From: Candidatus Heimdallarchaeum aukensis
GTDB lineage: Archaea > Asgardarchaeota > Heimdallarchaeia > Heimdallarchaeales > Heimdallarchaeaceae
Assembly: GCA_021513695.1 (NCBI GenBank)
Contig: CP084166.1
Coordinates: 2,688,001 to 2,752,000 of the forward strand
DNA length: 64,000 nt
Direction: 5' to 3'
The position numbers and the translations under genes are program-made. Below are positions 3,126-59,021 of this stretch, one piece after another (position 1 is the stretch's first letter; each line of letters begins with the position of its first letter). Under the pieces are notes generated by a model. It was not told the origin of the DNA and ran no database searches. It saw only the letters and a list, made by a program, of their open reading frames with translations.

Positions 3126-3202
3126 TAAAATACAGCAAATCTGATTTTTTCTTTTTCATTTTTTTTCAAATAGCAAAGAATTTATAGTTCAATCTGAACA
3201 TA

Positions 3203-4180
3203 TTGTTGTTAAACATGAGCGAAACAGAACCTTGTCCTTATTGTTTTAGAGAAATTAAAAAAGGGGTAAATTTTTGTAAATATTGTGGCTCTGCAATAAA
3301 ATATTGTCCAGAATGTAATTCTGCAAATAAAGCTGAAAGCCTTTTCTGTAGTTCTTGTGGAAAAGATATTAGAGATATCATCGCGAAAAAGAGAGAGACA
3401 GAGCCTCCAATCTCTCATCGCGTTGTTGGTCCAACTGCAAGTCAAAAAATAGTTATGTGGCCTCCTCCAGGCCAATTTTTTCCAACACAACCAAAATATA
3501 GACCTTATCAAACACCAGAGGAACAATTATTTGGAACAGCAGATAAACAAGAGTCTTTTCAACCAAAAATCGTTTATCCTTATTCGAAGGTAGCAATACT
3601 CGGGTTCTTGAGAGGTCCAATCTCAACTTCAAAAGTTTTTTCTTCTGTTATTGAAGCATTTGCTTATGGACTGTCTCTCATTGCCGCAGGAGTGTTAATC
3701 ATAAGTTTAAGTTTTCTTTTTCTCCAAACTTTGATCTTACCAATAATAGGATTGCTGTGGGGAGGAACTTTAATTCTATCTGCTCCTTTTTTCGGTATGT
3801 ATTTTGTTACTTCAAGCTGGTTATATAAAGCATTTAAAATTAAAAAACCTGTTAGCGATATGACTATATTGTGGAACTATCTGTTTAGTATAATTTTCTT
3901 TTCCTTTATTTCGCTCATTTTATTACCTTTGCTCGCAACAAACACTCTATTTGCTACAATTTTTGGGATAATAGCTTTAATTGTTATCTTTGCTGTATTA
4001 ATTGTGATCCCACTAAAAGCTTTTCTTATTGACTTAGCCTACGTAAAAGCAGCTGTAATGGAACGAGAGAGTCAAAAAGATAAAGAAGAAACTTCAGATG
4101 AAGATAAAACTCAAAACGATAAAGAGGAAGTTGAAGAAACAAAAAAAGAAGCTTATAAAATAGAAAAAAAGGAAAGTTAA
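3203..4180 (+). CDS. Membrane protein with an N-terminal double zinc-ribbon, a Pro-rich linker, about 4 TM helices and a charged K/E-rich tail
   Basis: 'CPYCFREIKKGVNFCKYCGSAIKYCPECNSANKAESLFCSSCGKDI' gives two CxxC...CxxC ribbons. Long hydrophobic segments follow, then 'ERESQKDKEETSDEDKTQNDKEEVEETKKE'. Confidence 0.5.
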   Translation: MLLNMSETEPCPYCFREIKKGVNFCKYCGSAIKYCPECNSANKAESLFCSSCGKDIRDIIAKKRETEPPISHRVVGPTASQKIVMWPPPGQFFPTQPKYRPYQTPEEQLFGTADKQESFQPKIVYPYSKVAILGFLRGPISTSKVFSSVIEAFAYGLSLIAAGVLIISLSFLFLQTLILPIIGLLWGGTLILSAPFFGMYFVTSSWLYKAFKIKKPVSDMTILWNYLFSIIFFSFISLILLPLLATNTLFATIFGIIALIVIFAVLIVIPLKAFLIDLAYVKAAVMERESQKDKEETSDEDKTQNDKEEVEETKKEAYKIEKKES

Positions 4181-4758
4181 ACTAATCTTTGAACCAATTT
4201 TACTGTCTTATTATCTTCAGCAATATCCACTATTCCATTATTCCTCAAGTCATAAAGAGCTTTCATAACTGCTGCAGGAGTTATTCCCGTTGTTTTTACT
4301 ATCTCATCTCTTGTCCATTCTTCTTTATCTGTGCCTTGCAATAATAACAGAATTTTGGTGTGAGGATTCGCTGCAAAGACATTTTCAAATAGTATAGAAT
4401 AAATTGCAAGTAGCTCTTCAATATCCATTTCTTTAGCTTTTTCAGCAGCTAACTCTTCATACAATGTTCTAAATTTTGACATAGATTCTTCAAGATTATT
4501 TAACTTTTCTTCATATTCTTTGTTTTTTTGCTCTAATTCATTGACTTTCTCAAGTTTTTCTTTAGTCTCAATGGCTAATTTTTCAAGTTCAGCTTCCTTC
4601 TCTTTTAACTCTTTAGAGTATCTTTTATTTGCTTTCTCTAAATTTTCTGCATATTCAATTAGACCAAGTAAAAGGACGGGTAATTGCTCAAAGTTATCTT
4701 TAATAGAAAAATAAAGTTCTTTAAATTCCTTTAAAGTATTTGAATCTAAGTTTGTCAT
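4177..4758 (-). CDS. Coiled-coil protein with a C-terminal winged-helix (MarR/TrmB-like) domain
   Basis: Residues ~40-105 are heptad-rich K/E/L ('KELKEKEAELEKLAIETKEKLEKVNELEQKNKEYEEKLNNLEE'). The C-terminus 'WTRDEIVKTTGITPAAVMKALYDLRNNGIVDIAEDNKTVKLV' fits a wHTH pattern. Confidence 0.45.
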   Translation of the reverse strand: MTNLDSNTLKEFKELYFSIKDNFEQLPVLLLGLIEYAENLEKANKRYSKELKEKEAELEKLAIETKEKLEKVNELEQKNKEYEEKLNNLEESMSKFRTLYEELAAEKAKEMDIEELLAIYSILFENVFAANPHTKILLLLQGTDKEEWTRDEIVKTTGITPAAVMKALYDLRNNGIVDIAEDNKTVKLVQRLV

Positions 4759-5016
4759 AATACTTTAACTATAATAATTATAGTATTTATTTGTTTTGTA
4801 AAATTATTAGCTAATATTAAATTTAAAGATTTAAACAAGTTATTCATCCTGTTTTCAAATAGAGAGGTGTTTAACTTTCTCTTTTATCTTAATTGACTTG
4901 ATTTTTGTGCAAAGTGGTTGTACGCCAATCTTGTTATCGGGAAAGTTCTATGAATGGTAATGTCTTAATACACAAAACCAAGAACCGGATTAATGTAAAA
5001 AAGCAATTATGAAAAA

Positions 5017-5451
5017 TCAAGTTGATGAGATAATTTCAATTTTATCTCCTACAGATATAATGCCTGGTCTAACGACTTTTGCGAAAATTCCTTCTTCTAT
5101 CATAGCTTTCTTTTTCTCATATTCTTCTGGACTAAATTGCTCTTTTGGTTTTCCTATCTGAACGATTTCTAAAACAACCTTATTTATTTTTATTTTAGTA
5201 CCTATTGGTTTATTATTGAGTTCAATTCCGTCGATTGTTAGATTTTCAAAAAGATCTCCATAACTTAGTTTATCTGGGTTTTTCATAAGTTTTTGAATAC
5301 TCTTTATACTTAATAATGAAACTTGTTTATCCCAATTTCCTGAATGAGAATCTCCTTTTAAACCCAAATTAGTTACTTCTACGGTATTAATGTTCTTTTT
5401 TGGCAATTCTCTCTTTGGGCTAATGTTTACAGCTAAAACTGTACCAATCAT
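5017..5451 (-). CDS. MOSC-domain protein (YiiM-like; Mo-cofactor sulfurase C-terminal family)
   Basis: 144 aa. 'MIGTVLAVNISPKR...GLKGDSHSGNWDKQVSLLS...IDGIELNNKPIGTKIKI' matches the MOSC beta-barrel pattern. Sits next to MoaD-like and AOR genes. Confidence 0.55.
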   Translation of the reverse strand: MIGTVLAVNISPKRELPKKNINTVEVTNLGLKGDSHSGNWDKQVSLLSIKSIQKLMKNPDKLSYGDLFENLTIDGIELNNKPIGTKIKINKVVLEIVQIGKPKEQFSPEEYEKKKAMIEEGIFAKVVRPGIISVGDKIEIISST

Positions 5452-5520
5452 AAGAGAAAAAAAATAAATGAAAAGTTAAATTTTTCGTAATTTATGAAGA
5501 ATGGAATTACTGAAAAATCA

Positions 5521-5806: not shown

Positions 5807-7651
5807 TTATATTTCAAGTTCTAATTCTTTAATTTTTTCGGGTGTAGGAATACCATCTTCCCATCCACGTAGCTTATAATACTCTTGTTTCATTTGTTCT
5901 AATTCAACAATTTGTCCTTCTGATGCTCCTTCTGGCATCTTTTCCTCAAGTAGTCGTTTAGGTAATGTGTCATCTTTTCCAGATATTCCTAACTTATTTA
6001 GGATCATCCTTTCTAAATTAGTTATTCTTTCACCTGTCTTCAATAGTTCATCGGTTGTTACGTCCCAACCAGTTACTGGGCCTATCATTTCAGCATACTC
6101 ATCTAAACCAAGAGCAAAAGTTAAGAATAAACAATTAACGCTTGAATTTACTACACTAGTGAAATCTTGGAACGTTTTAGTTAGTTCAGCTTTTCCTTCT
6201 ATTGTGAATCTATCAACATCTCCTAGAACTTCTGCAGCAATAGTATAACCTGTGACATGGCAACCTCCTCGATTAGCTGTAGCATAATTTAATCCAATGC
6301 CTTTTGCTCCTCGTGGGTCATATGCTGGCATTTCTAAACCTTTTACTGACATCGATAATTCAGGAGCTCCATAATGTTCACACATTTTACGTGATCCTTC
6401 TCCAATCCAATAACCTAAACCTTGTCTAAAGGCAGCCATCCATGTGAGTTCTACAATAGCATCAGGGTTTCCAAATTCTACTTTTAATCCTTGTAAATCT
6501 TCTTCAGGTATTAACCCTTTTTCATTTAATTCCATCGCTGCAGCAATTGTGGAGCCAATAGATATCGGATCCATACCAAAGATGTCACAATAGTGGTTAG
6601 CTCGAATAACAGCTCCCATATTGTTGACATTTGTTGTACCTCCTAGTGCCCAAATTGCTTCATATTCAGGACCTTCTGTAAATGAAATCTTATAAGGGCC
6701 AAGTTCAACCTTTGTTTTTCTTCCACAAGCAACAACACAACCCCAACATGGGTGTTTGGAAATCAAATATTTCTCTGTCAAAGTCTCTCCTGAAATATTT
6801 TCTGCTTCTTTATCTACTCCTGTTTGCCAATTTTTAGTCGGGAAAAGACCATTTTGATTGATTATATTAACTAATACTGCAGTTCCATAAGTAGGTAAAC
6901 CTTCTCCTGTGACTCCATTTTCTTTTAGTTTTTCAACATGTTCTTTTACTTTTGTTTCAAATTCCTCTTGTTTAGCAATTTGTGGCTTAGCATTTCCATC
7001 TACAATTATGGCTTTTAACTTCTTTGAACCCATTATAGCTCCTAAACCTGTTCTACCGGCTGCTCTGTGTATTTCATTCATAATTACGGCACAAGGAACA
7101 AGATTTTCTCCTGCTGGGCCTATGCAACTAACTCCTGCTCTTTTTCTTTCGTGTTTTGATTGTAACCACTTTGTAGTGTCTATAGTATTTTTACCCCATA
7201 TTTCGCTAGCATCATGTAATTCTGGTTTTCCATCAATAATAGACAAGTAAACGGGTGTATCACTCTTTCCTTCAATAACAATTCCATCGTATCCTGCAAA
7301 TTTAAGCTTTGCACCCCAAGTACCACCAGTATTTCCAGAACCAATAGATCCTGTGAGAGGAGATTTCAAAGCCATTACATGATGTCTACCACTATTTGGA
7401 GAACGTGTTCCTGTAACTGGGCCTGTAGAAAAGAATAAAACGTTGTCAGGTGATAAAGCATCCATCTCTTTTAAATCTACACCTTTTTTTTCTAATTCTT
7501 TTGCATAATTCCAAAGATAGTAAACAGCTAAACCTTTTCCTCCAATAAATTTGCGTAGTATATCTTCTGGGAAATCAAAATCAGACATTTCTTTTGAACT
7601 TAGATTAACTTTTAACCATTTTCCCATATATCCATAATTCATTTTGCTCAC
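5807..7651 (-). CDS. aor: Aldehyde:ferredoxin oxidoreductase (tungsten/molybdopterin AOR family), canonical length
   Basis: 614 aa. N-terminal AFOR_N-like ('GGKGLAVYYLW', 'GPVTGT...SPLTGSIGSGNTGGTWGAKLKFAGYDGIVIEGKS'). The C-terminal AOR catalytic domain is collinear with the second AOR paralog at 53557..55935. Confidence 0.85.
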   Translation of the reverse strand: MSKMNYGYMGKWLKVNLSSKEMSDFDFPEDILRKFIGGKGLAVYYLWNYAKELEKKGVDLKEMDALSPDNVLFFSTGPVTGTRSPNSGRHHVMALKSPLTGSIGSGNTGGTWGAKLKFAGYDGIVIEGKSDTPVYLSIIDGKPELHDASEIWGKNTIDTTKWLQSKHERKRAGVSCIGPAGENLVPCAVIMNEIHRAAGRTGLGAIMGSKKLKAIIVDGNAKPQIAKQEEFETKVKEHVEKLKENGVTGEGLPTYGTAVLVNIINQNGLFPTKNWQTGVDKEAENISGETLTEKYLISKHPCWGCVVACGRKTKVELGPYKISFTEGPEYEAIWALGGTTNVNNMGAVIRANHYCDIFGMDPISIGSTIAAAMELNEKGLIPEEDLQGLKVEFGNPDAIVELTWMAAFRQGLGYWIGEGSRKMCEHYGAPELSMSVKGLEMPAYDPRGAKGIGLNYATANRGGCHVTGYTIAAEVLGDVDRFTIEGKAELTKTFQDFTSVVNSSVNCLFLTFALGLDEYAEMIGPVTGWDVTTDELLKTGERITNLERMILNKLGISGKDDTLPKRLLEEKMPEGASEGQIVELEQMKQEYYKLRGWEDGIPTPEKIKELELEI

Positions 7652-49451: not shown

Positions 49452-51464
49452 GTGCGTGATAATTTTTTCTTTCTTAGAAGGTTAAATCTTTTGGGTAAAC
49501 TTGAGAAGTTCGATAAATATTTTTCTTCTATTGATTGGACTTCTATTTTGGATGAAATCAATGAACGCTTGTTTTTTTTTGGTGGAGGTTATAGTCGCAT
49601 TCTTGATTTATTTTCTGCTACTCTCATTGAACGTGGTATTTGGTTTGATTCTCGTTATTATATGAGCAATAAAGTTCTTAAAATTGTCTTTAAGGTTTTA
49701 TCTCAGTTTGCAGATAACAACCTTATTTTTTCTTTAGTTTCTGCTTTGGATGACTACGATTCTGATGTTCGTGCTGCTGTTGCTGAGCTGTTAGGTCTAA
49801 TTGGCCATTCTCTTGCTGTTGACCCCTTAATCAAATTACTCAAAGATGAGAATTGCTTTGTTCGCAGTAGTGTTGTCATAGCTTTGGGTAAGCTTGGTGA
49901 TCCTCGCTCCATTGCTGCATTTAATGATATTGCCTTATATGATGATTCCCAGGGTGTGCGTGCCGATGTTATACGATCCTTGAGAGAGATAGGTGATCCT
50001 CTTGGTGTTTCCCTTCTAATCGAAGCCCTAAAAGATGAGGATAGTATTGTTGTAAGAGCTGCTTTAGAAGTCTTGCTAGAATTGGTTGATTCTGGTTCTG
50101 TTGAGTTATTAATAGAAGCTCTAAAAGATAGGCATTGGTTTGTTCGCAGTAGTGTTGCAGAAGCGTTAGGCAAAATAGGAGACCCTAGAGCCATTGACTC
50201 CCTAGTAGCTGCCTTGAAAGATAAGGATTATTTTGTTCGCAGTAGTGTTGCAAAAGCTTTAAGTAAAATGGACGATTCTAGAGCCATTGACTCCCTAGTA
50301 GCTGCCTTAAAAGATAAAGATTTGCGAATGCGTCGTATTGCTGCAGAAGTGTTGGGAGAAATAGGTGACTCTAGGGCAGTTGAACCCTTAATAGATGTAG
50401 CTCTAAAAGATGAGGGTTTTTTTGTGCGTGAAAAAGCTATAATACTGTTAGGTGAACTAGGTGATTCTAGAGCAGTCAAGCCCTTAATAGAATTACTAAA
50501 AGATGAAGATTGGGAAGTGCGTCGTAATGTTGCAACAGCGTTGGGTAAAATAGGTGACCCTAGAGCCATTGAACCATTAATCAATGCAACTCTATATGAT
50601 GGTAATTGTGAAGTGTGTTATTTTTCTAAAGAGTCACTGATAAAAATAGGTGATATGAGTGCCGTTGAACCTCTAATAGAAGGACTGAAAGATAAGCATC
50701 CTTCTGTTCGTTGTGTTGCTGCTGAAGTGTTAGGTGAACTAGGTGATTCTAGAGCTGTCAAGCCCTTAATAGAATTACTAAAAGATGAAAATAGGAAAGT
50801 GCGTTGTGATGCTGCAGAAGCGTTAGGTAAAATAGGTGACCCTAGAGCCATTGAACCATTAATCAATGCAACATTATACGATGATGTTTTTCATGTGCGT
50901 AATAATGCTGCCTCGGCACTGAGAGAAATAGGCGTTTCTAGTGCTGTTGAACCATTAGTTAAACTAGCCTTATATGATGAAGATTCAGAAGTGCGTAAAA
51001 ATGCTGCTTATGCTTTAGGTGAAATATGTAATCCTAATGTCGTTGACCCATTAATCGATGCAGACCTATATGATGATGAGGAAGTGTGTGAAAATGCTTC
51101 CTCTGAGTTAGGTTTAAGATGTGATCCTAGTTCAGCTGAATTATTAGTAAATTTAACACTCTATGAGGAGGATTCAGTAGTGCGTGCAAGAGCTTTAAAT
51201 TTATTGGTTCAAATACGTGATTCAATTGCAATAGAAAAATTAATCAATATAGTGCTGTATGATGAAGATTCAGAAGTGCGTAAAAATGCCGCAAAAGCCT
51301 TAGGTGAGATAGGTGATACAAATTCATTTGAAACATTAATAATGAATGCCCTAGATGATGACGAGGGGAAAGTGACTAAAAATGTTGAAGAAGCTGTAAG
51401 AATAATGGGCGATCCTGAATTAATTGAATCACTAGAAGATGCCCTATTAAATAAGAGTTGGTAA
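49452..51464 (+). CDS. HEAT-repeat (PBS-lyase HEAT-like) protein with about 17 tandem 31-aa repeats. A likely ATG start is at ~49662.
   Basis: Reiterated 'D.xVR..AA.ALG.IGD.RAI.PLI..LKDE' units. The 5' 70 codons start with GTG and are low-complexity. Confidence 0.75.
   Translation: MRDNFFFLRRLNLLGKLEKFDKYFSSIDWTSILDEINERLFFFGGGYSRILDLFSATLIERGIWFDSRYYMSNKVLKIVFKVLSQFADNNLIFSLVSALDDYDSDVRAAVAELLGLIGHSLAVDPLIKLLKDENCFVRSSVVIALGKLGDPRSIAAFNDIALYDDSQGVRADVIRSLREIGDPLGVSLLIEALKDEDSIVVRAALEVLLELVDSGSVELLIEALKDRHWFVRSSVAEALGKIGDPRAIDSLVAALKDKDYFVRSSVAKALSKMDDSRAIDSLVAALKDKDLRMRRIAAEVLGEIGDSRAVEPLIDVALKDEGFFVREKAIILLGELGDSRAVKPLIELLKDEDWEVRRNVATALGKIGDPRAIEPLINATLYDGNCEVCYFSKESLIKIGDMSAVEPLIEGLKDKHPSVRCVAAEVLGELGDSRAVKPLIELLKDENRKVRCDAAEALGKIGDPRAIEPLINATLYDDVFHVRNNAASALREIGVSSAVEPLVKLALYDEDSEVRKNAAYALGEICNPNVVDPLIDADLYDDEEVCENASSELGLRCDPSSAELLVNLTLYEEDSVVRARALNLLVQIRDSIAIEKLINIVLYDEDSEVRKNAAKALGEIGDTNSFETLIMNALDDDEGKVTKNVEEAVRIMGDPELIESLEDALLNKSW
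50430..50890. repeat. Near-identical internal tandem duplication of about 280 bp (three HEAT units) inside the HEAT-repeat gene
   Basis: 'ggtgaactaggtgattctagagc.gtcaagcccttaatagaattactaaaagatgaa...ggtaaaataggtgaccctagagccattgaaccattaatcaatgcaac' occurs at ~50451 and ~50733, about 90% identical. Confidence 0.7.
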
Positions 51465-51597: not shown

Positions 51598-51810
51598 TTA
51601 ATACCTGAATCTTTCTCTAGATTTTAAATAAATTTCCATCAGTTTTGGTTTTTTTGACGCTCTATCCATTAGTTCTTCAATTTCTTTCTTTGGTTGTCCT
51701 TTTTCTGCTTTAATTCTTGATGTAGTAACGATCACATAAATTAACATCGCAGTAATAGCTAAAAAACCTCCAAAAACGATTATACCGAAGGCTACTATTA
51801 CTATATTCAT
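51598..51810 (-). CDS. Small single-TM protein (copy 1 of a tandemly duplicated gene)
   Basis: 70 aa 'MNIVIVAFGIIVFGGFLAITAMLIYVIVTTSRIKAEKGQPKKEIEELMDRASKK'. About 75% identical to 52082..52297. Confidence 0.45.
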   Translation of the reverse strand: MNIVIVAFGIIVFGGFLAITAMLIYVIVTTSRIKAEKGQPKKEIEELMDRASKKPKLMEIYLKSRERFRY

Positions 51811-51879
51811 CGAATAATAATAGCTTTCAACAATTAAATACTTTTGGAAAAAAGGTATAATTAATTATCTCTTAATTTT

Positions 51880-52065
51880 TTGTTCATATGCCTTCATTAG
51901 TTCCTTAAAGCTTCTTCTTTTGTAATATCTTTTGGATTTAAGGTAAGTGTTCCATCGTTTATCGCTTTTTCTGTTATTTCTTCTAGCTGTTCTTCTTTTT
52001 CTCCCTCCTCTTTCAATGTTTTTGGTAATTTTGTTAATTAACCTTTCTTGAAGTTCTTCTACTTT
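51880..52065 (-). pseudogene. 3'-terminal fragment (about 60 codons) of an iron-alcohol-dehydrogenase gene, frameshifted and with the stop mutated. It is a relic of a ~480-bp tandem duplication.
   Basis: The DNA aligns with the 3' end of the intact ADH gene at 52361..52545 ('ttcatatgccttcattag...aaagcttcttcttttgt.a.atcttttggatttaaggtaagtg'). There is a ~5-nt indel relative to the intact copy and a tta->ttg stop change. Confidence 0.55.
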
Positions 52066-52081
52066 TTTTTACTGACTTATG

Positions 52082-52297
52082 TTAAAACCATAATCTTCCC
52101 TTATACTGTAAATAATTTTCCATTAATTTTGTATTTTTTGCTGCTCTATCCATTAATTCTTCAATTTTCTTTTTTGGTTGTCCTTTTATTGGTTTGATTC
52201 TTGATGTCGTAGCAATTAGATAAATTAATATCGACATAATAGCAAAAAAGCCTACAAAAACAATTACTCCAAAGGCTACTATTAGTGAACTCATCAT
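52082..52297 (-). CDS. Small single-TM protein (copy 2)
   Basis: 71 aa 'MMSSLIVAFGVIVFVGFFAIMSILIYLIATTSRIKPIKGQPKKKIEELMDRAAKN'. Confidence 0.45.
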   Translation of the reverse strand: MMSSLIVAFGVIVFVGFFAIMSILIYLIATTSRIKPIKGQPKKKIEELMDRAAKNTKLMENYLQYKGRLWF

Positions 52298-52360: not shown

Positions 52361-53551
52361 TTATTCATATGCCTTCATTAGTATCCTTAAAGCTTCTTCT
52401 TTTGTTACATCTTTTGGATTTAAGGTAAGTGATCCATCATTTATCGCTTTTTCTGCTATTTCTTCTAGTTGTTCTTCTTTCACTCCTGCTTCTTTCAATG
52501 TTTTTGGTAATTTTATTAGTTCATTTAACCTCTCTTGAAGTTCTTCTATTTTTTCTATGAACTTTCTAGCTCTTTCTTTTTCTTCAGTTTTTACATATAT
52601 TTCTTCTCCCGCTAGTGGTAAAAGTAGTTCTTTTAACTCTTCTTTAATCTCTTCGTAGTTGAATTTAAGCACATGTGGTAGAAATATGTTCATTGCTACT
52701 CCATGAGGAATTTTTGCTACTGCTCCTGCAGCGTGTCCTAAACTATGTACTAGACCGACCATAGAATTAGAAAAAGCTACTCCTGCCATTGTTGCTGCTA
52801 TTGCCATTTCTAATCTTCTTTCTTTGTCCTTTCCATTTTTCACTAGTTCAACGATGTTTTTACTAATTAATTCTATAGCCTTCCATGCATAGACGTCGCT
52901 AAAGAGGTTTTTTTGTAAACAAGTATATGCTTCTATAGCGTGAGTTAGTGCGTCCATAGCTGTTAAAGCTGTTATATAAGCTGGTAGGGTAATAGTCATT
53001 CGTGGATCTATTACTGCTACGTCAGGCATAAGATATCGTGAAGTAAATAACATTTTAGTTGCAGACTTGTCATCTTTTATCACAGCAACTGCTGTTACTT
53101 CTGAACCTGTACCTGCAGTAGTAGGAATAACAAAAAGAGGTCTAAGCGGACGTTTTAATCTTTCTGCTCCAGCAAATTCTTTTAGATCTTTTCCTTTTTC
53201 TGAAACTAAGATATTTACTCCTTTTGCTGTATCTATTACTGATCCTCCGCCTATTGCTATTATCCCATCACATTTTTTTTCATTATAGATTTCTGCTATT
53301 TTATTTACTTCCTCGGTTGAAGAATCTTGAGGTATGTCATCTATTATAGCAGGGAATATTACATCTGCTCCTCCACATGCTTTAATTACTTTATCTACCA
53401 ACCCTGCTTTGTTTACTCCTCTATCAGTGAGAATGATAGGTCTTTTTACTCTGAAATTATCAAATTCCGAAGGCAAGTTTTCTAAAGCTTTTTTGCCTGC
53501 TAATATTTTTGTCTTATTCTGAAATTCAAAATATTCTTTCATTTTTTTCAC
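52361..53551 (-). CDS. Iron-containing (group III) alcohol dehydrogenase
   Basis: 'AIGGGSVIDTAKG', 'TTAGTGSEVT', 'DALTHAIEAY' and 'GLVHSLGHAAG' are Fe-ADH metal/NAD motifs. Confidence 0.85.
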   Translation of the reverse strand: MKKMKEYFEFQNKTKILAGKKALENLPSEFDNFRVKRPIILTDRGVNKAGLVDKVIKACGGADVIFPAIIDDIPQDSSTEEVNKIAEIYNEKKCDGIIAIGGGSVIDTAKGVNILVSEKGKDLKEFAGAERLKRPLRPLFVIPTTAGTGSEVTAVAVIKDDKSATKMLFTSRYLMPDVAVIDPRMTITLPAYITALTAMDALTHAIEAYTCLQKNLFSDVYAWKAIELISKNIVELVKNGKDKERRLEMAIAATMAGVAFSNSMVGLVHSLGHAAGAVAKIPHGVAMNIFLPHVLKFNYEEIKEELKELLLPLAGEEIYVKTEEKERARKFIEKIEELQERLNELIKLPKTLKEAGVKEEQLEEIAEKAINDGSLTLNPKDVTKEEALRILMKAYE

Positions 53552-53556
53552 CTTTA

Positions 53557-55935
53557 TTAAATGTTAAAAGGAATTGAGAATAAATATAGGTAAATTCTAA
53601 CAATATATCTCTTCATTAAATTAATAGTAGGTATTTTTCGCATTATTCTTTTTGCAATAATTCTTGGAAAAAGATAGGTTTCTGTGATATTTAGGCAACG
53701 TATTAGAGACATAGCAATTTGAGTATCTCCTTTAACTTTTATTGCATTAGATGCATAAGCATGATGTATGCCTTTCTGAGCAGTCATTAACTCAAAAGCA
53801 GCGTCTATAGTTCTAAAAGTAATAACTAGATCTGCTTGTTTTTCTGGAATCTTTTGAGGATTTAAGACTCCTTTTTTATTCTTTAAAAGCCCTAAACTAG
53901 TTTCATAGTTATCTACATTAAATAAAATCTTGAAATTTGTTGGCCAAGATCTAATCTCTTGCTTAATATTAGAATCAATAGTTGATAATGTCTTCATTGC
54001 TCTTCCTAAAATTGTAAAAACTAAAGATACTATTCTTTCTTTAATTCTCTTAGGTTTAGGTTGGAATCCTTCTTCTATTCCTAACTTTTTCATGACCTTT
54101 GCTGTTGGGACACCGTTTCTTGAATAACCTCTAATCTTGTAATACTTTTCTTGCATCTCTTCTAAGGGGACAACTTTTTTCTTTTTATCGCTCTCTCTTC
54201 CTTCATTTAGGAATCGTTCAGGAAGAGTATCATCTATTCTTGAGACACCTATCAAGGTGTTCATATATCTTTCTAGAATATGAATTCTTTCACCTGCTTT
54301 GAGAAAATCACGAGAACTTTGTTTTATTCCAGTTACAGTTTCAAATAATTTAGAGTAAATACTTATATCTAATACTTTTTGCGTTATTCTTGGAAAATAG
54401 CTAATAAAGATTTTCAGAAATATTTTTGGCGGATACTTTGCTATTGGTGCTTCTAACATAAAGGCATAAGAAGTAAAAATACATAATTGTAGTGAATTAA
54501 TTGCTGAAAAGAGATTTTCCATGTAATAAACAAACTGTGCTTTAGCTCGCTTCGATTCTCCTTTAAGAAAATTGAAAAATGCTTCTAGGGTGAATAATGA
54601 TGCAGAAAGGTGACACGCTCCTCTATTTGCAACACTGTAGGATAGCCCTTGTCCCCAACATCCTCTTGGATCATATCCTGAAAATTCTAGACCTTTAATA
54701 TTCATTGCAAATCCTTTTCCACCATATTTTTCTGCTAGCCTTTTAGTTCCAAGGGCTAACTCTTCTCCTATTCCTTTTCTGTATGCAATGTCATAAAGTA
54801 TTTCAGAAACTCCTTCTGGAGAACCAAATTTTAGTGGAAAAGAAAAGAGATTTTTCTCATTAGCTTCTATGGCATATGCTAATGTTACAGATATAGAAAT
54901 AGTATCTAATCCTAATCTTGAACAAATTTCATTCCATTCAGCAATTTTTTCAGCATCATATATCTCTAGATTAGAACCAAATAAACTTGTGGTCTCATAT
55001 TCTGGAGCTTGAATTAATTTACCGTTGAACATTCCTTTATGTCCACAGAGGATTGCACAGTTCCTGCAAGAGCTGTATTTCTTATAGAATTCGGACTTTA
55101 ATCTTTCACCATACAGTTCACTAGCTTTTTCGCTCATACCTTTTGTGAAATTGCGAACTGGTAAGATCTTTTTTTCGTTACATATCCTAAAACCAGCGTT
55201 TGTGCCATAATTTCTGTATAAATCTGAAGTATATTCGTTTCTATTAATATACTTAATTGCTTTTCTTTTTATTTTCATGTATTTCTTTTCTTTTTTTGGT
55301 TTTATTCTGAAAGAACCTTTTTCAACAACAATAGCTTTAAGGTTTTTAGCTCCAAAGACAGCTCCTATTCCTCCTCTACCAAAAAATCTGTGTCCAGAAG
55401 CTACATTGGCATAAAGAACCCTATTTTCTCCTGCAGGACCAATAACTAGATTCCCTTTATTTTTTGCTTCTAGTAATTCTTGAGTCTCAAAGATATCTTT
55501 ACCCCAAATTTTAGAAGCACTGTTAAATGAAACACCGTTTTCTGTAATAGATAGATAAGTTGGTTCTTTTGCTTGCCCTTTTATTATTACTCCGTCATAA
55601 CCTACAGATTTCAAGAAAAACGCAAATGACCCTCCACAAGATGAAGAAACTATTAAACCTGTAAGCGGAGATTTAGTAACAGCAGCAAAGCGAGAAGAAT
55701 TGGGTGCACCAGTTCCAACCATTACTCCACCAAAGATGGCAATAATGTTATCTTCACCTAAAGGGTCACAAGACAGATCCATCTTTTTATATAGATAGTA
55801 AATGGCTAATCCCTTTCCTCCGAGATAAAGTTTTCTTTCTTCATTACTTATAGAAACTGTTGTAAAAGCTTTCTTTGTAAGATCAATCTCAAGTAGTTTG
55901 TTGTGAGACCCTAAAATCAACCTAGGACTAGTCAT
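53557..55935 (-). CDS. AOR-family aldehyde:ferredoxin oxidoreductase fused to a C-terminal SCP2 (sterol-carrier-protein-2) domain and a hydrophobic/basic tail
   Basis: Residues 1-~615 are collinear with the AOR at 5807..7651 ('GGKGLAIYYL', 'SPLTGLIVSSSCGGSFAFFLKSVGYDGVIIKG', 'GPAGENRVLYA'). Residues ~640-750 read 'NFKILFNVDNYETSLGLLKNKKGVLNPQKIPEKQADLVITFRTIDAAFELMTAQKGIHHAYASNAIKVKGDTQIAMSLIRCL'. This parallels the SCP2 core '[46 protein letters not shown]'. Confidence 0.8.
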   Translation of the reverse strand: MTSPRLILGSHNKLLEIDLTKKAFTTVSISNEERKLYLGGKGLAIYYLYKKMDLSCDPLGEDNIIAIFGGVMVGTGAPNSSRFAAVTKSPLTGLIVSSSCGGSFAFFLKSVGYDGVIIKGQAKEPTYLSITENGVSFNSASKIWGKDIFETQELLEAKNKGNLVIGPAGENRVLYANVASGHRFFGRGGIGAVFGAKNLKAIVVEKGSFRIKPKKEKKYMKIKRKAIKYINRNEYTSDLYRNYGTNAGFRICNEKKILPVRNFTKGMSEKASELYGERLKSEFYKKYSSCRNCAILCGHKGMFNGKLIQAPEYETTSLFGSNLEIYDAEKIAEWNEICSRLGLDTISISVTLAYAIEANEKNLFSFPLKFGSPEGVSEILYDIAYRKGIGEELALGTKRLAEKYGGKGFAMNIKGLEFSGYDPRGCWGQGLSYSVANRGACHLSASLFTLEAFFNFLKGESKRAKAQFVYYMENLFSAINSLQLCIFTSYAFMLEAPIAKYPPKIFLKIFISYFPRITQKVLDISIYSKLFETVTGIKQSSRDFLKAGERIHILERYMNTLIGVSRIDDTLPERFLNEGRESDKKKKVVPLEEMQEKYYKIRGYSRNGVPTAKVMKKLGIEEGFQPKPKRIKERIVSLVFTILGRAMKTLSTIDSNIKQEIRSWPTNFKILFNVDNYETSLGLLKNKKGVLNPQKIPEKQADLVITFRTIDAAFELMTAQKGIHHAYASNAIKVKGDTQIAMSLIRCLNITETYLFPRIIAKRIMRKIPTINLMKRYIVRIYLYLFSIPFNI

Positions 55936-56078: not shown

Positions 56079-59021
56079 TTAGTTAGTTTTAGCGAAAACA
56101 AGACCTTTTTTCTTGAGTAATAGCAGTATTACTGTAATAAGACCAATGCCGCCCACTGCAGCTAGAGGAATAATATACATTAATGGATTAATTTCTTTTT
56201 CTACACTGTAATTTATTTCAAATATTTCAGTTTCTGTAGTTAAAGATGAGTCATCAGTTGCACTTATCTTGAAAATTAAGGTTCCTGATTTTTTGGGTAA
56301 TTCTATGTCAAAGAAGTAACAATCTGTCTCATTGTTGTAAAGCATTGTTTCAACCATCCATTCATCTTCTGTAGCAAATTTGTAAGAAAACAGGACATTT
56401 GTTATATTTCCATCATCGGTCACATTAGCTCTGATTCTTATCGCTTTTTCTTCTAGGACTAAAGGAGAAGAGAATGACGTATCTAACACGATAATTATTG
56501 GAGCTAAAGCTTTTGTAAACTCTATAATGGTAATATTAGATTCTGAAGAAAATCCAGCAAGATCATATGCTCTTACTTTGTATGTCAAGTTCCCTGAAGA
56601 AATAATGACCGGTATCGAAACTGTGTATAAAGATATAGAAGAGTCATATTTCATTGAAAGTATTTTCCAATCGCTTTCTTCATCAAATGTGTAATAAACT
56701 TCTACTGTAAGTAATCCTCCTTTATCTGTGACATTTGCTTGAACTTCAATATCATAACCCCCAGCTAGGTCAAGAGGACTTGTAATAGGAATTAGACTAA
56801 TATTTGGAGCTAATCCATCTGAATAATAACTAAAGGTAGAACTATTAACTGAGTTATCTAATGCGTCAGTTAAGGTAATATAAAATAGAACATCTGTATC
56901 CATATTTGTTCTGGGGATAGTAGAAATAAATTCATAACCTATTGGAATAGTATAATGCTTTAATACAATCTCATAATTTATTACAGAACCAGAATATAAA
57001 TCAGAATAATCTGTAATTTTTAGAGTGAAATTAGCTTCTGTGAAGTCAGATTGAGTTAACCCAAGTTCTAGTAAGTCGATGCTTAAAGTAAAACTTGTTG
57101 GTCTAGTTTCTCTATCAAAAATCAAAAATTCTCTTCCATCATCTAATTCTAACCAGATTCTAATATCTGCAGATTTCTCGTGAGTGATGTCAACGTTTAG
57201 TGTTGCTTCTGATACTCCTCCTCCTCTTTCAACATTTAAAGTTACAAGTGTTGTACTATTGTCTTCAATTAAGGCAGGTAAGTCTACAGCAGTAAAAGTT
57301 TCCATATAATCCATAAAAGAATTGTAGTTTATGACATAGGATATTGTGTTGTTCCACGTTATTCCTCCATCTGTACTATACCAAACAACAGAAGTTTTAA
57401 GGTCTGTGTAGTCGGTCGCATTAAATAACACTTGGACATCGGTAATATTTGAGATTACTGGGGGGTTAACAAGTAGTTTGCCCAAAATAGGTGCTGCACC
57501 ATCAGCATAATAGAAGTTGACTGAAGTGTTCCCCACATTGTCAAAAAAGTCATAAGTTTCAAAGAAGTACTCAACAAACGTTGTTTCGTTTGTTTCAGGT
57601 AGAATAACTGTAAAAGTTGTGGGGGATGTTCCTTCTTCTATTGGCGTTGTATTGACCATCTGTTTTCTTAAGAAAGTTGTTCCGTTAGGCATTGAGTATA
57701 AAATATCAACTCTTTTTGTTCCTGAAGGGTCAACAAATTTTGCAGTAATATTAACTTCTGAACTTGTTAATGTTACATTTTCTATTCCTGGAATAGATAT
57801 TCCGCCATAAATTGAAATTGAATTTACTCTGGGATTCATGTTATCTACTATGGCGGTTTTTAATCCAGATGATCCCTCTCTTCCTTTTTTAGAGTCAACT
57901 ATATCTGAAGCATTTATCATGTATAGAAGATTAGCTTCTACATTAGAAATATCGTCTATTTGAAGTGTTGTACGGTAACTTGCCGCTGTACTACTTAAAT
58001 CTGTCAAATATTCAAAGTTTTGCGATTTATAGTCTTCCTCACCTTCAATCTTATAGTATAAAGTTACACTAGTATCATTAATCGTTTCTACTCCATCATA
58101 ATCCGTAACTGTGACATTAAATACAAAACCAGTGTCTGCATTAATAACTGTTGGTACTTCATGAATGGTAATCTTGGGGGTCCAATCCATAAGAAATGTG
58201 TATGTTTCACTGGTCATTGAATTATTGAATAGATCAAACGAGGTAACATAATATTCAACCCAAGTGGGAGTGTTAGTTGTGACGCTAGGTGGAGTTATAT
58301 CTCCACTAAAATATTCTTCATATATACGCAAGTAATTAAATACTGGGTCATTTACATTAGGATGATCTCCAATATGTGTGATCGCAAATATCTTATATCC
58401 TAATACAGATTCTGTGCTATCATAATCTACAGGAAATGGTGAAACTTCTTCTGTCCCTCCATATGATCCATCAATATATCTTTGTTCCCATGTTTCTGAA
58501 GTAATATTAAAGGCTTCAATTGAGACATAGACAAGATTGTTACGACTTGTTTCCTTATCAATTGAGCAATATATTCTCTTTATTACATCTCCTTCATTAG
58601 CTATGAAAATGTATTCACCATATCTCCATTCTGTTTTATCATTCGTTTTGATTCCAGTGTCAGTTATGTATCCTGTTGATTCAAACTCTGTCTCATCCAC
58701 AACTAGTTGTAAATCTCTACTCATCGAAGCGTTAAACAAAGTATCGTTTAGTGAAATATACTTCCACCACAGAGTAGCATTCCTTATTTCATCTGAATCA
58801 CTTATTGTCAAAGAAACCGTTGCTGTTTCATTGCTATTTGGAGCATCAGGACTAACCTGTGGTGTTCCGAAGAAACTATATTCTGAACTGAATTTTATAG
58901 GTGTTTCTCTGTCTAAAGTTCGGTTTGAAGATAAGTAAATATTCAGCGATACTTCTACACTAGCAGTTATTAAGACAGCTGTAATTAAAATAATTTGGCT
59001 AAATTTCTTTAATTCTTTCAT
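56079..59021 (-). CDS. Large secreted surface protein (980 aa) with repeated Ig/beta-sandwich-like modules and a C-terminal TM anchor
   Basis: N-terminal signal 'IILITAVLITASVEVSL'. Many N-x-S/T sequons. C-terminal 'PLMYIIPLAAVGGIGLITVILLLLKKKG'. Confidence 0.6.
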   Translation of the reverse strand: MKELKKFSQIILITAVLITASVEVSLNIYLSSNRTLDRETPIKFSSEYSFFGTPQVSPDAPNSNETATVSLTISDSDEIRNATLWWKYISLNDTLFNASMSRDLQLVVDETEFESTGYITDTGIKTNDKTEWRYGEYIFIANEGDVIKRIYCSIDKETSRNNLVYVSIEAFNITSETWEQRYIDGSYGGTEEVSPFPVDYDSTESVLGYKIFAITHIGDHPNVNDPVFNYLRIYEEYFSGDITPPSVTTNTPTWVEYYVTSFDLFNNSMTSETYTFLMDWTPKITIHEVPTVINADTGFVFNVTVTDYDGVETINDTSVTLYYKIEGEEDYKSQNFEYLTDLSSTAASYRTTLQIDDISNVEANLLYMINASDIVDSKKGREGSSGLKTAIVDNMNPRVNSISIYGGISIPGIENVTLTSSEVNITAKFVDPSGTKRVDILYSMPNGTTFLRKQMVNTTPIEEGTSPTTFTVILPETNETTFVEYFFETYDFFDNVGNTSVNFYYADGAAPILGKLLVNPPVISNITDVQVLFNATDYTDLKTSVVWYSTDGGITWNNTISYVINYNSFMDYMETFTAVDLPALIEDNSTTLVTLNVERGGGVSEATLNVDITHEKSADIRIWLELDDGREFLIFDRETRPTSFTLSIDLLELGLTQSDFTEANFTLKITDYSDLYSGSVINYEIVLKHYTIPIGYEFISTIPRTNMDTDVLFYITLTDALDNSVNSSTFSYYSDGLAPNISLIPITSPLDLAGGYDIEVQANVTDKGGLLTVEVYYTFDEESDWKILSMKYDSSISLYTVSIPVIISSGNLTYKVRAYDLAGFSSESNITIIEFTKALAPIIIVLDTSFSSPLVLEEKAIRIRANVTDDGNITNVLFSYKFATEDEWMVETMLYNNETDCYFFDIELPKKSGTLIFKISATDDSSLTTETEIFEINYSVEKEINPLMYIIPLAAVGGIGLITVILLLLKKKGLVFAKTN

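Follow-up and report, generated by a model that had tools for sequence, protein, structure and literature searches.

Why would an aldehyde ferredoxin oxidoreductase (AOR) carry a sterol carrier protein 2 (SCP2)-like module at its C-terminus, directly ahead of a gene for an iron alcohol dehydrogenase (Fe-ADH, or ADH below)? This question is raised by a locus in a 64,000-nucleotide stretch of the Candidatus Heimdallarchaeum aukensis genome (contig CP084166.1, positions 2,688,001 to 2,752,000; hereafter the window), in which a first-pass annotation had picked out a fused AOR-SCP2 gene beside an ADH. We found that the AOR, the Fe-ADH, and the SCP2-like protein very probably work together, because the module and the ADH are found next to each other whichever of the two is taken as the starting point, and because the module is repeatedly fused or adjacent to a single AOR subclade, which amounts to a Rosetta-stone signal. 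The first-pass annotation had proposed a dedicated alcohol/aldehyde/acid module. The three-part linkage in that proposal held up, whereas its AOR-centred view did not: the core is the pair of SCP2-like protein and ADH, and the AOR is optional.

The fused gene and its C-terminal module

Open reading frames (ORFs) and Pfam agree that the window holds two AOR-family genes, as had been annotated: a canonical one of 614 aa (5807..7651, minus strand), which is 32% identical to the fused AOR, and the fused one of 792 aa. The neighbouring gene was also correctly recognized as an Fe-ADH, and it begins 14 nt downstream of the fused gene. The parts of the locus are as follows.

53557..55935, minus strand: fused AOR-SCP2 gene, 792 aa plus a TAA stop, from the ORF list; an exact-sequence match to GenBank UJG40566.1
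55321..55899, minus strand: AFOR_N, the AOR N-terminal domain, residues 13-205 (Pfam, E 1.6e-68)
54076..55272, minus strand: AFOR_C, AOR domains 2 and 3, residues 222-620 (Pfam, E 1.8e-109)
54337..54456, minus strand: helical hydrophobic insertion of ~30-40 aa, residues ~494-533 (a gap against AORs in the PDB)
54049..54075, minus strand: short flexible linker between the AOR and the SCP2 module, residues 621-629 (predicted local distance difference test, pLDDT; homolog alignment)
53680..54048, minus strand: predicted SCP2-fold domain, residues ~630-752 (profile and fold evidence)
53560..53679, minus strand: conserved basic amphipathic tail, residues 753-792 (column conservation, charge, and hydrophobic moment)
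53543..53556, minus strand: intergenic spacer of 14 nt with an AGGTGA ribosome-binding-like motif (read from the sequence)
52361..53542, minus strand: iron alcohol dehydrogenase, 393 aa, starting at ATG 53542 (Pfam Fe-ADH and ADH_Fe_C)

Judged from its sequence, the AOR catalytic region is complete and its catalytic motifs are intact. AFOR_N and AFOR_C scored 230.8 bits (cutoff 29.8) and 366.9 bits (cutoff 27), and the [4Fe-4S] ligands C290, C293, C297, and C485, a CxxCxxxC motif plus a distal Cys, align to those of the solved tungsten AOR 9mqx_D and are invariant across 79 homologs. The second-shell residues T245, E312, Y421, and H442 are kept in invariant or near-invariant columns of the same alignment, and this Thr/Glu/Tyr/His set is typical of aldehyde-oxidising AOR clades (PMC12096430). 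The extra Cys metal ligand of the YdhV/BamB type was not seen in the alignment of the fused AOR. The protein is a member of the AOR/WOR family, and we predict for it a tungsten- or molybdenum-bis-metallopterin cofactor and ferredoxin-linked aldehyde oxidation.

After the fourth cluster Cys, the AOR body carries an insertion of ~30 aa, modelled as short helices (pLDDT 89-95), that marks the subclade to which the fused protein belongs: it occurs in fused and unfused subclade members and is missing from the paralog at 5807..7651 and from solved AORs. As unfused members also carry it, we rejected the idea that it is a docking site unique to fused proteins; it might shape the substrate channel or an interface. 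In a neighbor-joining tree this subclade split from the window paralog with 100% bootstrap, and fused forms, split-adjacent forms, and a few unlinked forms of the AOR were interleaved. The archaeal fused AORs formed a group with 97% support that was separate from the bacterial fused groups, though the tree's backbone is unresolved and the number of fusion or fission events cannot be counted from it. To our knowledge, no member of the subclade has been characterised.

The extra residues at the C-terminus had been annotated as resembling SCP2, and we agree: sequence alone is borderline, and the matter was settled by family-level and structural evidence, which supports a predicted SCP2 fold for the C-terminal ~170 residues. 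The Pfam SCP2 model (PF02036) scored 20.2 bits against the full protein, below the gathering cutoff of 21.3, and 22.3-22.7 bits against the isolated module, above it; 15 of 76 family members matched this model individually (E <= 0.01), without a competing family. When a profile of the 76 members was run against the PDB with HMMER, the only significant matches were SCP2 proteins, led by human SCP2 (2c0l_B, E 4.2e-4) with rabbit SCP2 at ~4e-4, and the profile alignment fell in exactly the register quoted in the first-pass annotation. An AlphaFold model of the tail region alone (pLDDT 71) placed helices and strands in the order seen in SCP2, and the top 46 Foldseek matches of the module model in the PDB were all SCP2 folds, the best being UbiJ-SCP2 (E 2e-5). 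The modelled fold opens with two helices at the N-terminus, continues with a sheet of five strands and two short helices, and closes with a C-terminal helix that ends in a conserved AMSLIRCLN motif.

A full-length model of the fused protein, built with 79 homologs, reached a pLDDT of 92.1 and a predicted template modelling score (pTM) of 0.81, with the SCP2-like module at pLDDT 84-94. Residues 624-628 are the sole segment of this model with a pLDDT below 50, so the module would hang on a short flexible linker. This linker corresponds to the basic N-terminus of free-standing homologs, whose alignment with the fused protein starts at 'QPKPKR'.

Could the fusion be an artefact (an assembly chimera, a lost stop, or a frameshift), or the likeness to SCP2 a matter of chance? 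The full-protein Pfam score just under the gathering cutoff and the existence of free-standing versions of the module speak for such an explanation, which is nevertheless effectively refuted. Misassembly and read-through were rejected because Ca. H. endolithica, whose genome was closed independently, carries the same gene of 2379 nt (AOR 94%, tail 97%, and ADH 97% identical), with the same stop and an AOR/ADH junction that differs by a single base, and because 67 of the 120 homolog clusters that scored best in a whole-protein search have the fusion (795-841 aa, 44-57% identity, 99% query coverage). These clusters derive from many assemblies and one cultured isolate, and belong to Heimdallarchaeia, Anaerolineae (Anaerolineaceae), Desulfobacterota/Thermodesulfobacteriota, Desulfosarcina, and the cultured Desulfosoma caldarium, while the fold assignment is supported by four independent methods. 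The AOR-SCP2 fusion is neither rare nor genome-specific and spans two domains of life, and the public annotation of the fused sequences reads only "aldehyde ferredoxin oxidoreductase". The first-pass annotation had held that separate genes in closely related genomes would count against a true fusion. Such genes do occur in more distant Heimdallarchaeota and in Odinarchaeota, as a natural fusion/fission polymorphism and not an artefact, and in the other Heimdallarchaeum species, Ca. H. endolithica, the gene is fused.

Between the two Heimdallarchaeum species, omega was 0.13 for the AOR and 0.10 for the ADH, and both are under purifying selection. Synonymous divergence (dS) along the operon (53557..55935 compared with 3141..5519 of the Ca. 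H. endolithica locus, L009) was uneven: the AOR body has a dS of 0.21, the ADH one of 0.13, and the SCP2 module and tail have values of 0.06-0.08. This unevenness could reflect recombination or gene conversion or merely small counts.

A family paired with one iron alcohol dehydrogenase subfamily

A search with the module alone returned only free-standing proteins of 176-179 aa. The exhaustive profile search gave 508 clusters, defined at 50% identity, at E <= 0.001 and 380 at E <= 1e-10; nearly all of the 150 clusters listed were 145-210 aa long, with one fusion representative among them. The SCP2-like module belongs to a mostly free-standing family of ~175 aa and is not chiefly an AOR accessory, and on the strength of both searches we rejected the fusion as the ancestral or sole form. 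RefSeq lists members of the family as "hypothetical protein", no NCBIfam model covers it, and Pfam gives only the borderline SCP2 match.

The module was followed directly by an orthologous Fe-ADH, 49-61% identical to that of the window, in 30 of 30 loci that could be assessed, so the ADH neighbour noted in the first-pass annotation is conserved. These are the loci with downstream sequence (27 came from scanning genomes and metagenomes, and the other three are those of the window, Desulfosoma, and Anaerolineaceae), and they span Archaea and at least six bacterial phyla. The reverse test gave the same answer: four of four diverse ADH homologs, picked regardless of context from Desulfothermus okinawensis, Mangrovitalea sediminis, an Odinarchaeote, and an Acidobacteriote, were preceded by a member of the family (E 1e-55 to 1e-73). 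The Fe-ADH subfamily of the window enzyme is uncharacterised; in all assessed loci its members have an SCP2-like gene or module ahead of them, and this two-way adjacency suggests that the module is an obligate partner of that subfamily.

Within the window, the ADH ORF (52361..53551, minus strand) would encode 396 aa if GTG 53551 were used. The start at ATG 53542 is more likely; it agrees with the GenBank annotation (a 100% identical protein) and has the AGGTGA motif 5 nt upstream. The fused gene and the ADH are probably co-transcribed. The Pfam models Fe-ADH and ADH_Fe_C scored 163 and 177 bits, and the motifs GGGSVIDTAKG, MDALTHAIEAY, VHSLGH, and IPHGV line up with those that hold the ligands in 3owo and 8zrl; by this alignment the enzyme keeps the GGGS nucleotide-binding motif and all four metal ligands (Asp/His/His/His). 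Among solved structures, methanol and 1,3-propanediol dehydrogenases are closest to it (E ~1e-60 to 1e-66). No NCBIfam equivalog cutoff, that of EutG included, was reached by the window ADH, for which the best model was ErcA (323 bits against a cutoff of 550) with FucO, GbsB, and 4-hydroxybutyrate dehydrogenase close behind, and four other members of the subfamily likewise fell below the equivalog cutoffs.

ErcA, an ADH-like regulatory protein, was the top NCBIfam model for every subfamily ADH examined, and this raises the prospect that the module and an ADH-like protein form a comparable sensing or regulatory pair, with the AOR fusion incidental. We consider this very unlikely. Scores of 300-323 bits lie far below the ErcA cutoff and barely above those of FucO, GbsB, and 4-hydroxybutyrate dehydrogenase, the metal and NAD motifs of the ADH are intact, no sensor kinase or regulator is among the conserved neighbours of the SCP2-like/ADH pair, and the fact that a catalytic AOR subclade is linked to the pair again and again argues for metabolism.

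Downstream of the window ADH lies a partial copy of it. The segment 51903..52037 (minus strand), within 51598..52297, repeats ADH residues 345-389 at 87% identity and sits between two paralogous ORFs for ~70-aa single-helix membrane proteins (51598..51810 and 52082..52297), an arrangement that resembles a tandem duplication of the ADH 3' end together with a small membrane gene. In Ca. H. endolithica, too, a comparable piece of the ADH C-terminus comes after the ADH (L009, 7019-7195).

The position of the AOR varied among loci. It is fused upstream of the pair in the window, L009, L004, L006, and L011, forms a separate upstream gene in L021 and L034, follows the ADH in L014, L020, L027, L030, and L037, and is divergent in L022 and L023. 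No AOR was found within the 4-5 kb of flank fetched for another Heimdallarchaeote, an Odinarchaeote, Syntrophomonadales, Spirochaetota, Mangrovitalea, and others. The AOR often joins the pair as a third partner but is optional, and across the loci we found no other conserved neighbour. An AGPS-like FAD oxidase near the Anaerolineaceae locus was considered as a clue to the substrate and set aside, as it does not recur.

Several of these loci have features of their own. In an Anaerolineales metagenome-assembled genome (L021, 2856..5507), a 695-aa AOR with ~75 extra C-terminal residues is followed after 21 nt by a separate 180-aa SCP2-like gene and then by the ADH, which may be a fission or fusion intermediate. 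In the cultured gammaproteobacterium Mangrovitalea sediminis (L028, NTLB01000006.1), the SCP2-like and ADH genes overlap by 4 nt, no AOR lies in the 4-kb flanks, and two 4HBT thioesterase genes are nearby on the opposite strand. The presence of the pair in this host without an AOR means that the pair also occurs outside strict anaerobes and in loci that have no AOR. In archaeal loci that lack an AOR (L001, 9392..9910; L029, 724..1155), a small protein without a Pfam match precedes the SCP2-like gene; that of the Heimdallarchaeote has 172 aa, two N-terminal hydrophobic helices, and a Cys-rich C-terminus, and it is not conserved in bacterial loci.

What the three proteins may do together

The explanation that we prefer, and for which we see about an even chance, is that the locus encodes a three-part alcohol/aldehyde/carboxylic-acid unit in which an SCP2-fold carrier brings an alcohol or aldehyde of low solubility to the ADH, with the aldehyde passed to or from the AOR. 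Its parts would be a ferredoxin-linked metallopterin AOR, an NAD(P)-linked Fe-ADH, and the carrier module, which in Ca. Heimdallarchaeum and several bacterial lineages would have become covalently tethered to the AOR C-terminus through the short flexible linker. The SCP2 cavity would hold this alcohol or aldehyde, or else its hydrophobic chain, the ADH would interconvert alcohol and aldehyde, and where an AOR is present the reactive aldehyde would be handed to or from it without release. We favor a carrier role because the structural relatives of the module bind hydrophobic ligands, several of them, the SCP2 domain of SCPx included, on behalf of enzymes. The closest are UbiJ-SCP2, the SCP2-like domain of MFE-2, and the C-terminal domain of alkylsulfatases, all of which bind lipids for enzymes, and ligand binding by the module may be expected by analogy with them. 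The helices and strands lining the SCP2 tunnel have also kept their hydrophobic character. The physical complex, the hydrophobic substrate, the membrane docking, and any direction of flux in this scheme are what we infer, and the long-chain or isoprenoid substrates and membrane association suggested in the first-pass annotation would be read from the SCP2 fold.

A 40-aa hydrophobic and basic tail had also been described for the fused protein; its basic character was borne out, while a hydrophobic, membrane-spanning character was not. The SCP2 C-terminal helix is followed by a YLFPxxIA motif, whose Pro is 97% conserved, and beyond this motif come two further helices in which hydrophobic and Lys/Arg residues alternate regularly. 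The median net charge among the 76 family members is +14 overall and +7 for the 43-residue tail. A 19-residue window exceeds Kyte-Doolittle 1.6 in only 17 of the 76, and this hydropathy analysis does not support a transmembrane anchor. The tail is consistent with amphipathic helices that bind to a surface, be it an anionic membrane or a partner protein, and in the carrier scheme these would dock the module on an anionic membrane surface and/or on the enzymes. A role as a bacterial-microcompartment encapsulation peptide was dropped, as no shell genes were present in any locus examined.

Several observations weigh against the carrier scheme. The nearest solved or curated relatives of the ADH use small polar substrates (methanol, 1,3-propanediol, lactaldehyde, and choline), and the conserved neighbours of the SCP2-like/ADH pair include no lipid, fatty-acid, or isoprenoid genes. 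The C-terminal helices of the fused protein (738-755, 758-764, and 773-790) are modelled at pLDDT 76-90 in the monomer, and those of the tail may lie against the protein itself instead of a membrane. The positive charge of the fused window protein is partly an effect of a Lys-rich, low-GC proteome, its AOR body also being at +31. The SCP2 region differs by only 12 nucleotide substitutions between the Heimdallarchaeum species, too few to show selection on this region alone.

The small substrates of the ADH relatives, the lack of lipid genes nearby, and tail helices modelled confidently, as though packed on protein, also speak for a different role for the module, that of a structural adaptor and not of a ligand carrier: as a small subunit, it would drive oligomerisation of the ADH or add to its stability, and would tether the enzyme to the AOR. 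Short, soluble, toxic aldehydes such as acetaldehyde would then be channelled in ethanol or short-chain alcohol metabolism or in ferredoxin-driven acid reduction. The adjacency and fusion data support such a complex equally well, and routes with AOR and ADH for short-chain acids and alcohols are established in anaerobes (PMC12096430). We regard an adaptor as possible but somewhat unlikely, as every structural neighbour of the module binds a lipid or hydrophobic ligand, the tunnel lining has kept its hydrophobic character, and many loci have the module and the ADH but no AOR to tether.

If the carrier scheme is extended further, the SCP2-like protein and the Fe-ADH, with or without the AOR, might form an unrecognised, widely transferred system with which strict anaerobes convert long-chain acids, aldehydes, and alcohols, fatty or isoprenoid, that derive from membranes or from an exogenous source. 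We think this improbable. Were it true, Asgard archaea of the Heimdallarchaeia would gain a ferredoxin-driven route between fatty acids and fatty alcohols or aldehydes. Such a route could serve, for instance, ether-lipid or plasmalogen-type chemistry or alkane-derived alcohols, and it would bear on lipid metabolism at the archaeal-eukaryotic boundary.

Related systems and surrounding genes

AOR and ADH couples and enzyme-SCP2 fusions are each already known, and the sequences discussed here are already public. What appear to be undescribed so far are the SCP2-like family, its strict pairing with one Fe-ADH subfamily, and its fusion to an AOR clade. The first-pass annotation was not aware of a described AOR-SCP2 architecture, and in the openly searchable literature, which leaves subscription-only papers outside, we likewise found nothing linking AOR or Fe-ADH with SCP2 or sterol carriers. 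A 2025 review of tungsten enzymes calls many AOR clades purely hypothetical and mentions no SCP2-like module (PMC12096430), and the paper on the circularised genomes does not discuss the fused AOR-SCP2 and ADH genes (PMC8813620).

The nearest parallel for the module itself is found in UbiJ and UbiT, SCP2 accessory proteins of the Ubi metabolon, to which it is 13-20% identical; UbiJ SCP2 binds lipid on behalf of enzymes in that metabolon (PMC9499169). The partners differ, however, being an Fe-ADH and an AOR here and Ubi hydroxylases and methyltransferases there, and the YLFPxxIA tail motif is specific to the present family. Among the conserved neighbours we found no ubi (ubiquinone) genes and no UbiK-like coiled-coil partner; only the ADH and the AOR recur.

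As a fusion, the protein resembles the SCPx thiolase-SCP2, the dehydrogenase-hydratase-SCP2L of MFE-2/HSD17B4, and bacterial alkylsulfatases with an SCP2-like C-terminal domain. It differs from these eukaryotic and alkylsulfatase fusions in that the catalytic partner is a metallopterin/[4Fe-4S] AOR of strict anaerobes and the module is mostly a separate gene tied to an ADH, and from the eukaryotic ones also in having an extra basic amphipathic tail instead of a peroxisomal targeting signal. Compared with Pyrococcus furiosus AOR (1aor), WOR1 (9mqx), and FOR (1b25), the fused AOR falls in a separate subclade distinguished by its insertion and, often, by an SCP2-like C-terminal module.

In AOR-ADH routes and AdhE-type systems, the aldehyde is an internal intermediate. 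We know of no SCP2-like third component in either, whereas here the ADH was always accompanied by one in the assessed loci. The locus resembles both in the genetic coupling of an aldehyde enzyme to an Fe-ADH, with the aldehyde as a putative internal intermediate (partly PMC12096430).

These comparisons give an unannotated family of ~500 clusters a testable role, as the partner of one Fe-ADH subfamily and a recurrent fusion partner of one AOR clade, and they provide one "purely hypothetical" AOR clade with an operon-level functional context. For SCP2 biology, the theme of an enzyme with an SCP2 carrier, familiar from peroxisomal beta-oxidation, alkylsulfatases, and the Ubi metabolon, may extend to aldehyde chemistry that is linked to ferredoxin, both in anaerobic bacteria and in Asgard archaea. 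The family has cultured hosts in Desulfosoma caldarium, Desulfothermus okinawensis, and Mangrovitalea sediminis, which makes it directly testable.

Two further genes lie close to the locus in the window. Directly upstream of the fusion and on the same strand (56079..59021, minus strand) is a gene for a 980-aa protein without a significant Pfam match, which has a signal-like N-terminal helix, many N-x-S/T sites, and a C-terminal hydrophobic anchor and is likely a surface or S-layer-type protein. On the plus strand, 49452..51464 encodes a 670-aa protein made almost wholly of PBS-lyase/HEAT-like repeats (HEAT_2 E 7e-114, at least 8 units), and the antisense ORFs at 49754..50866 are probably by-products of this repeat composition.

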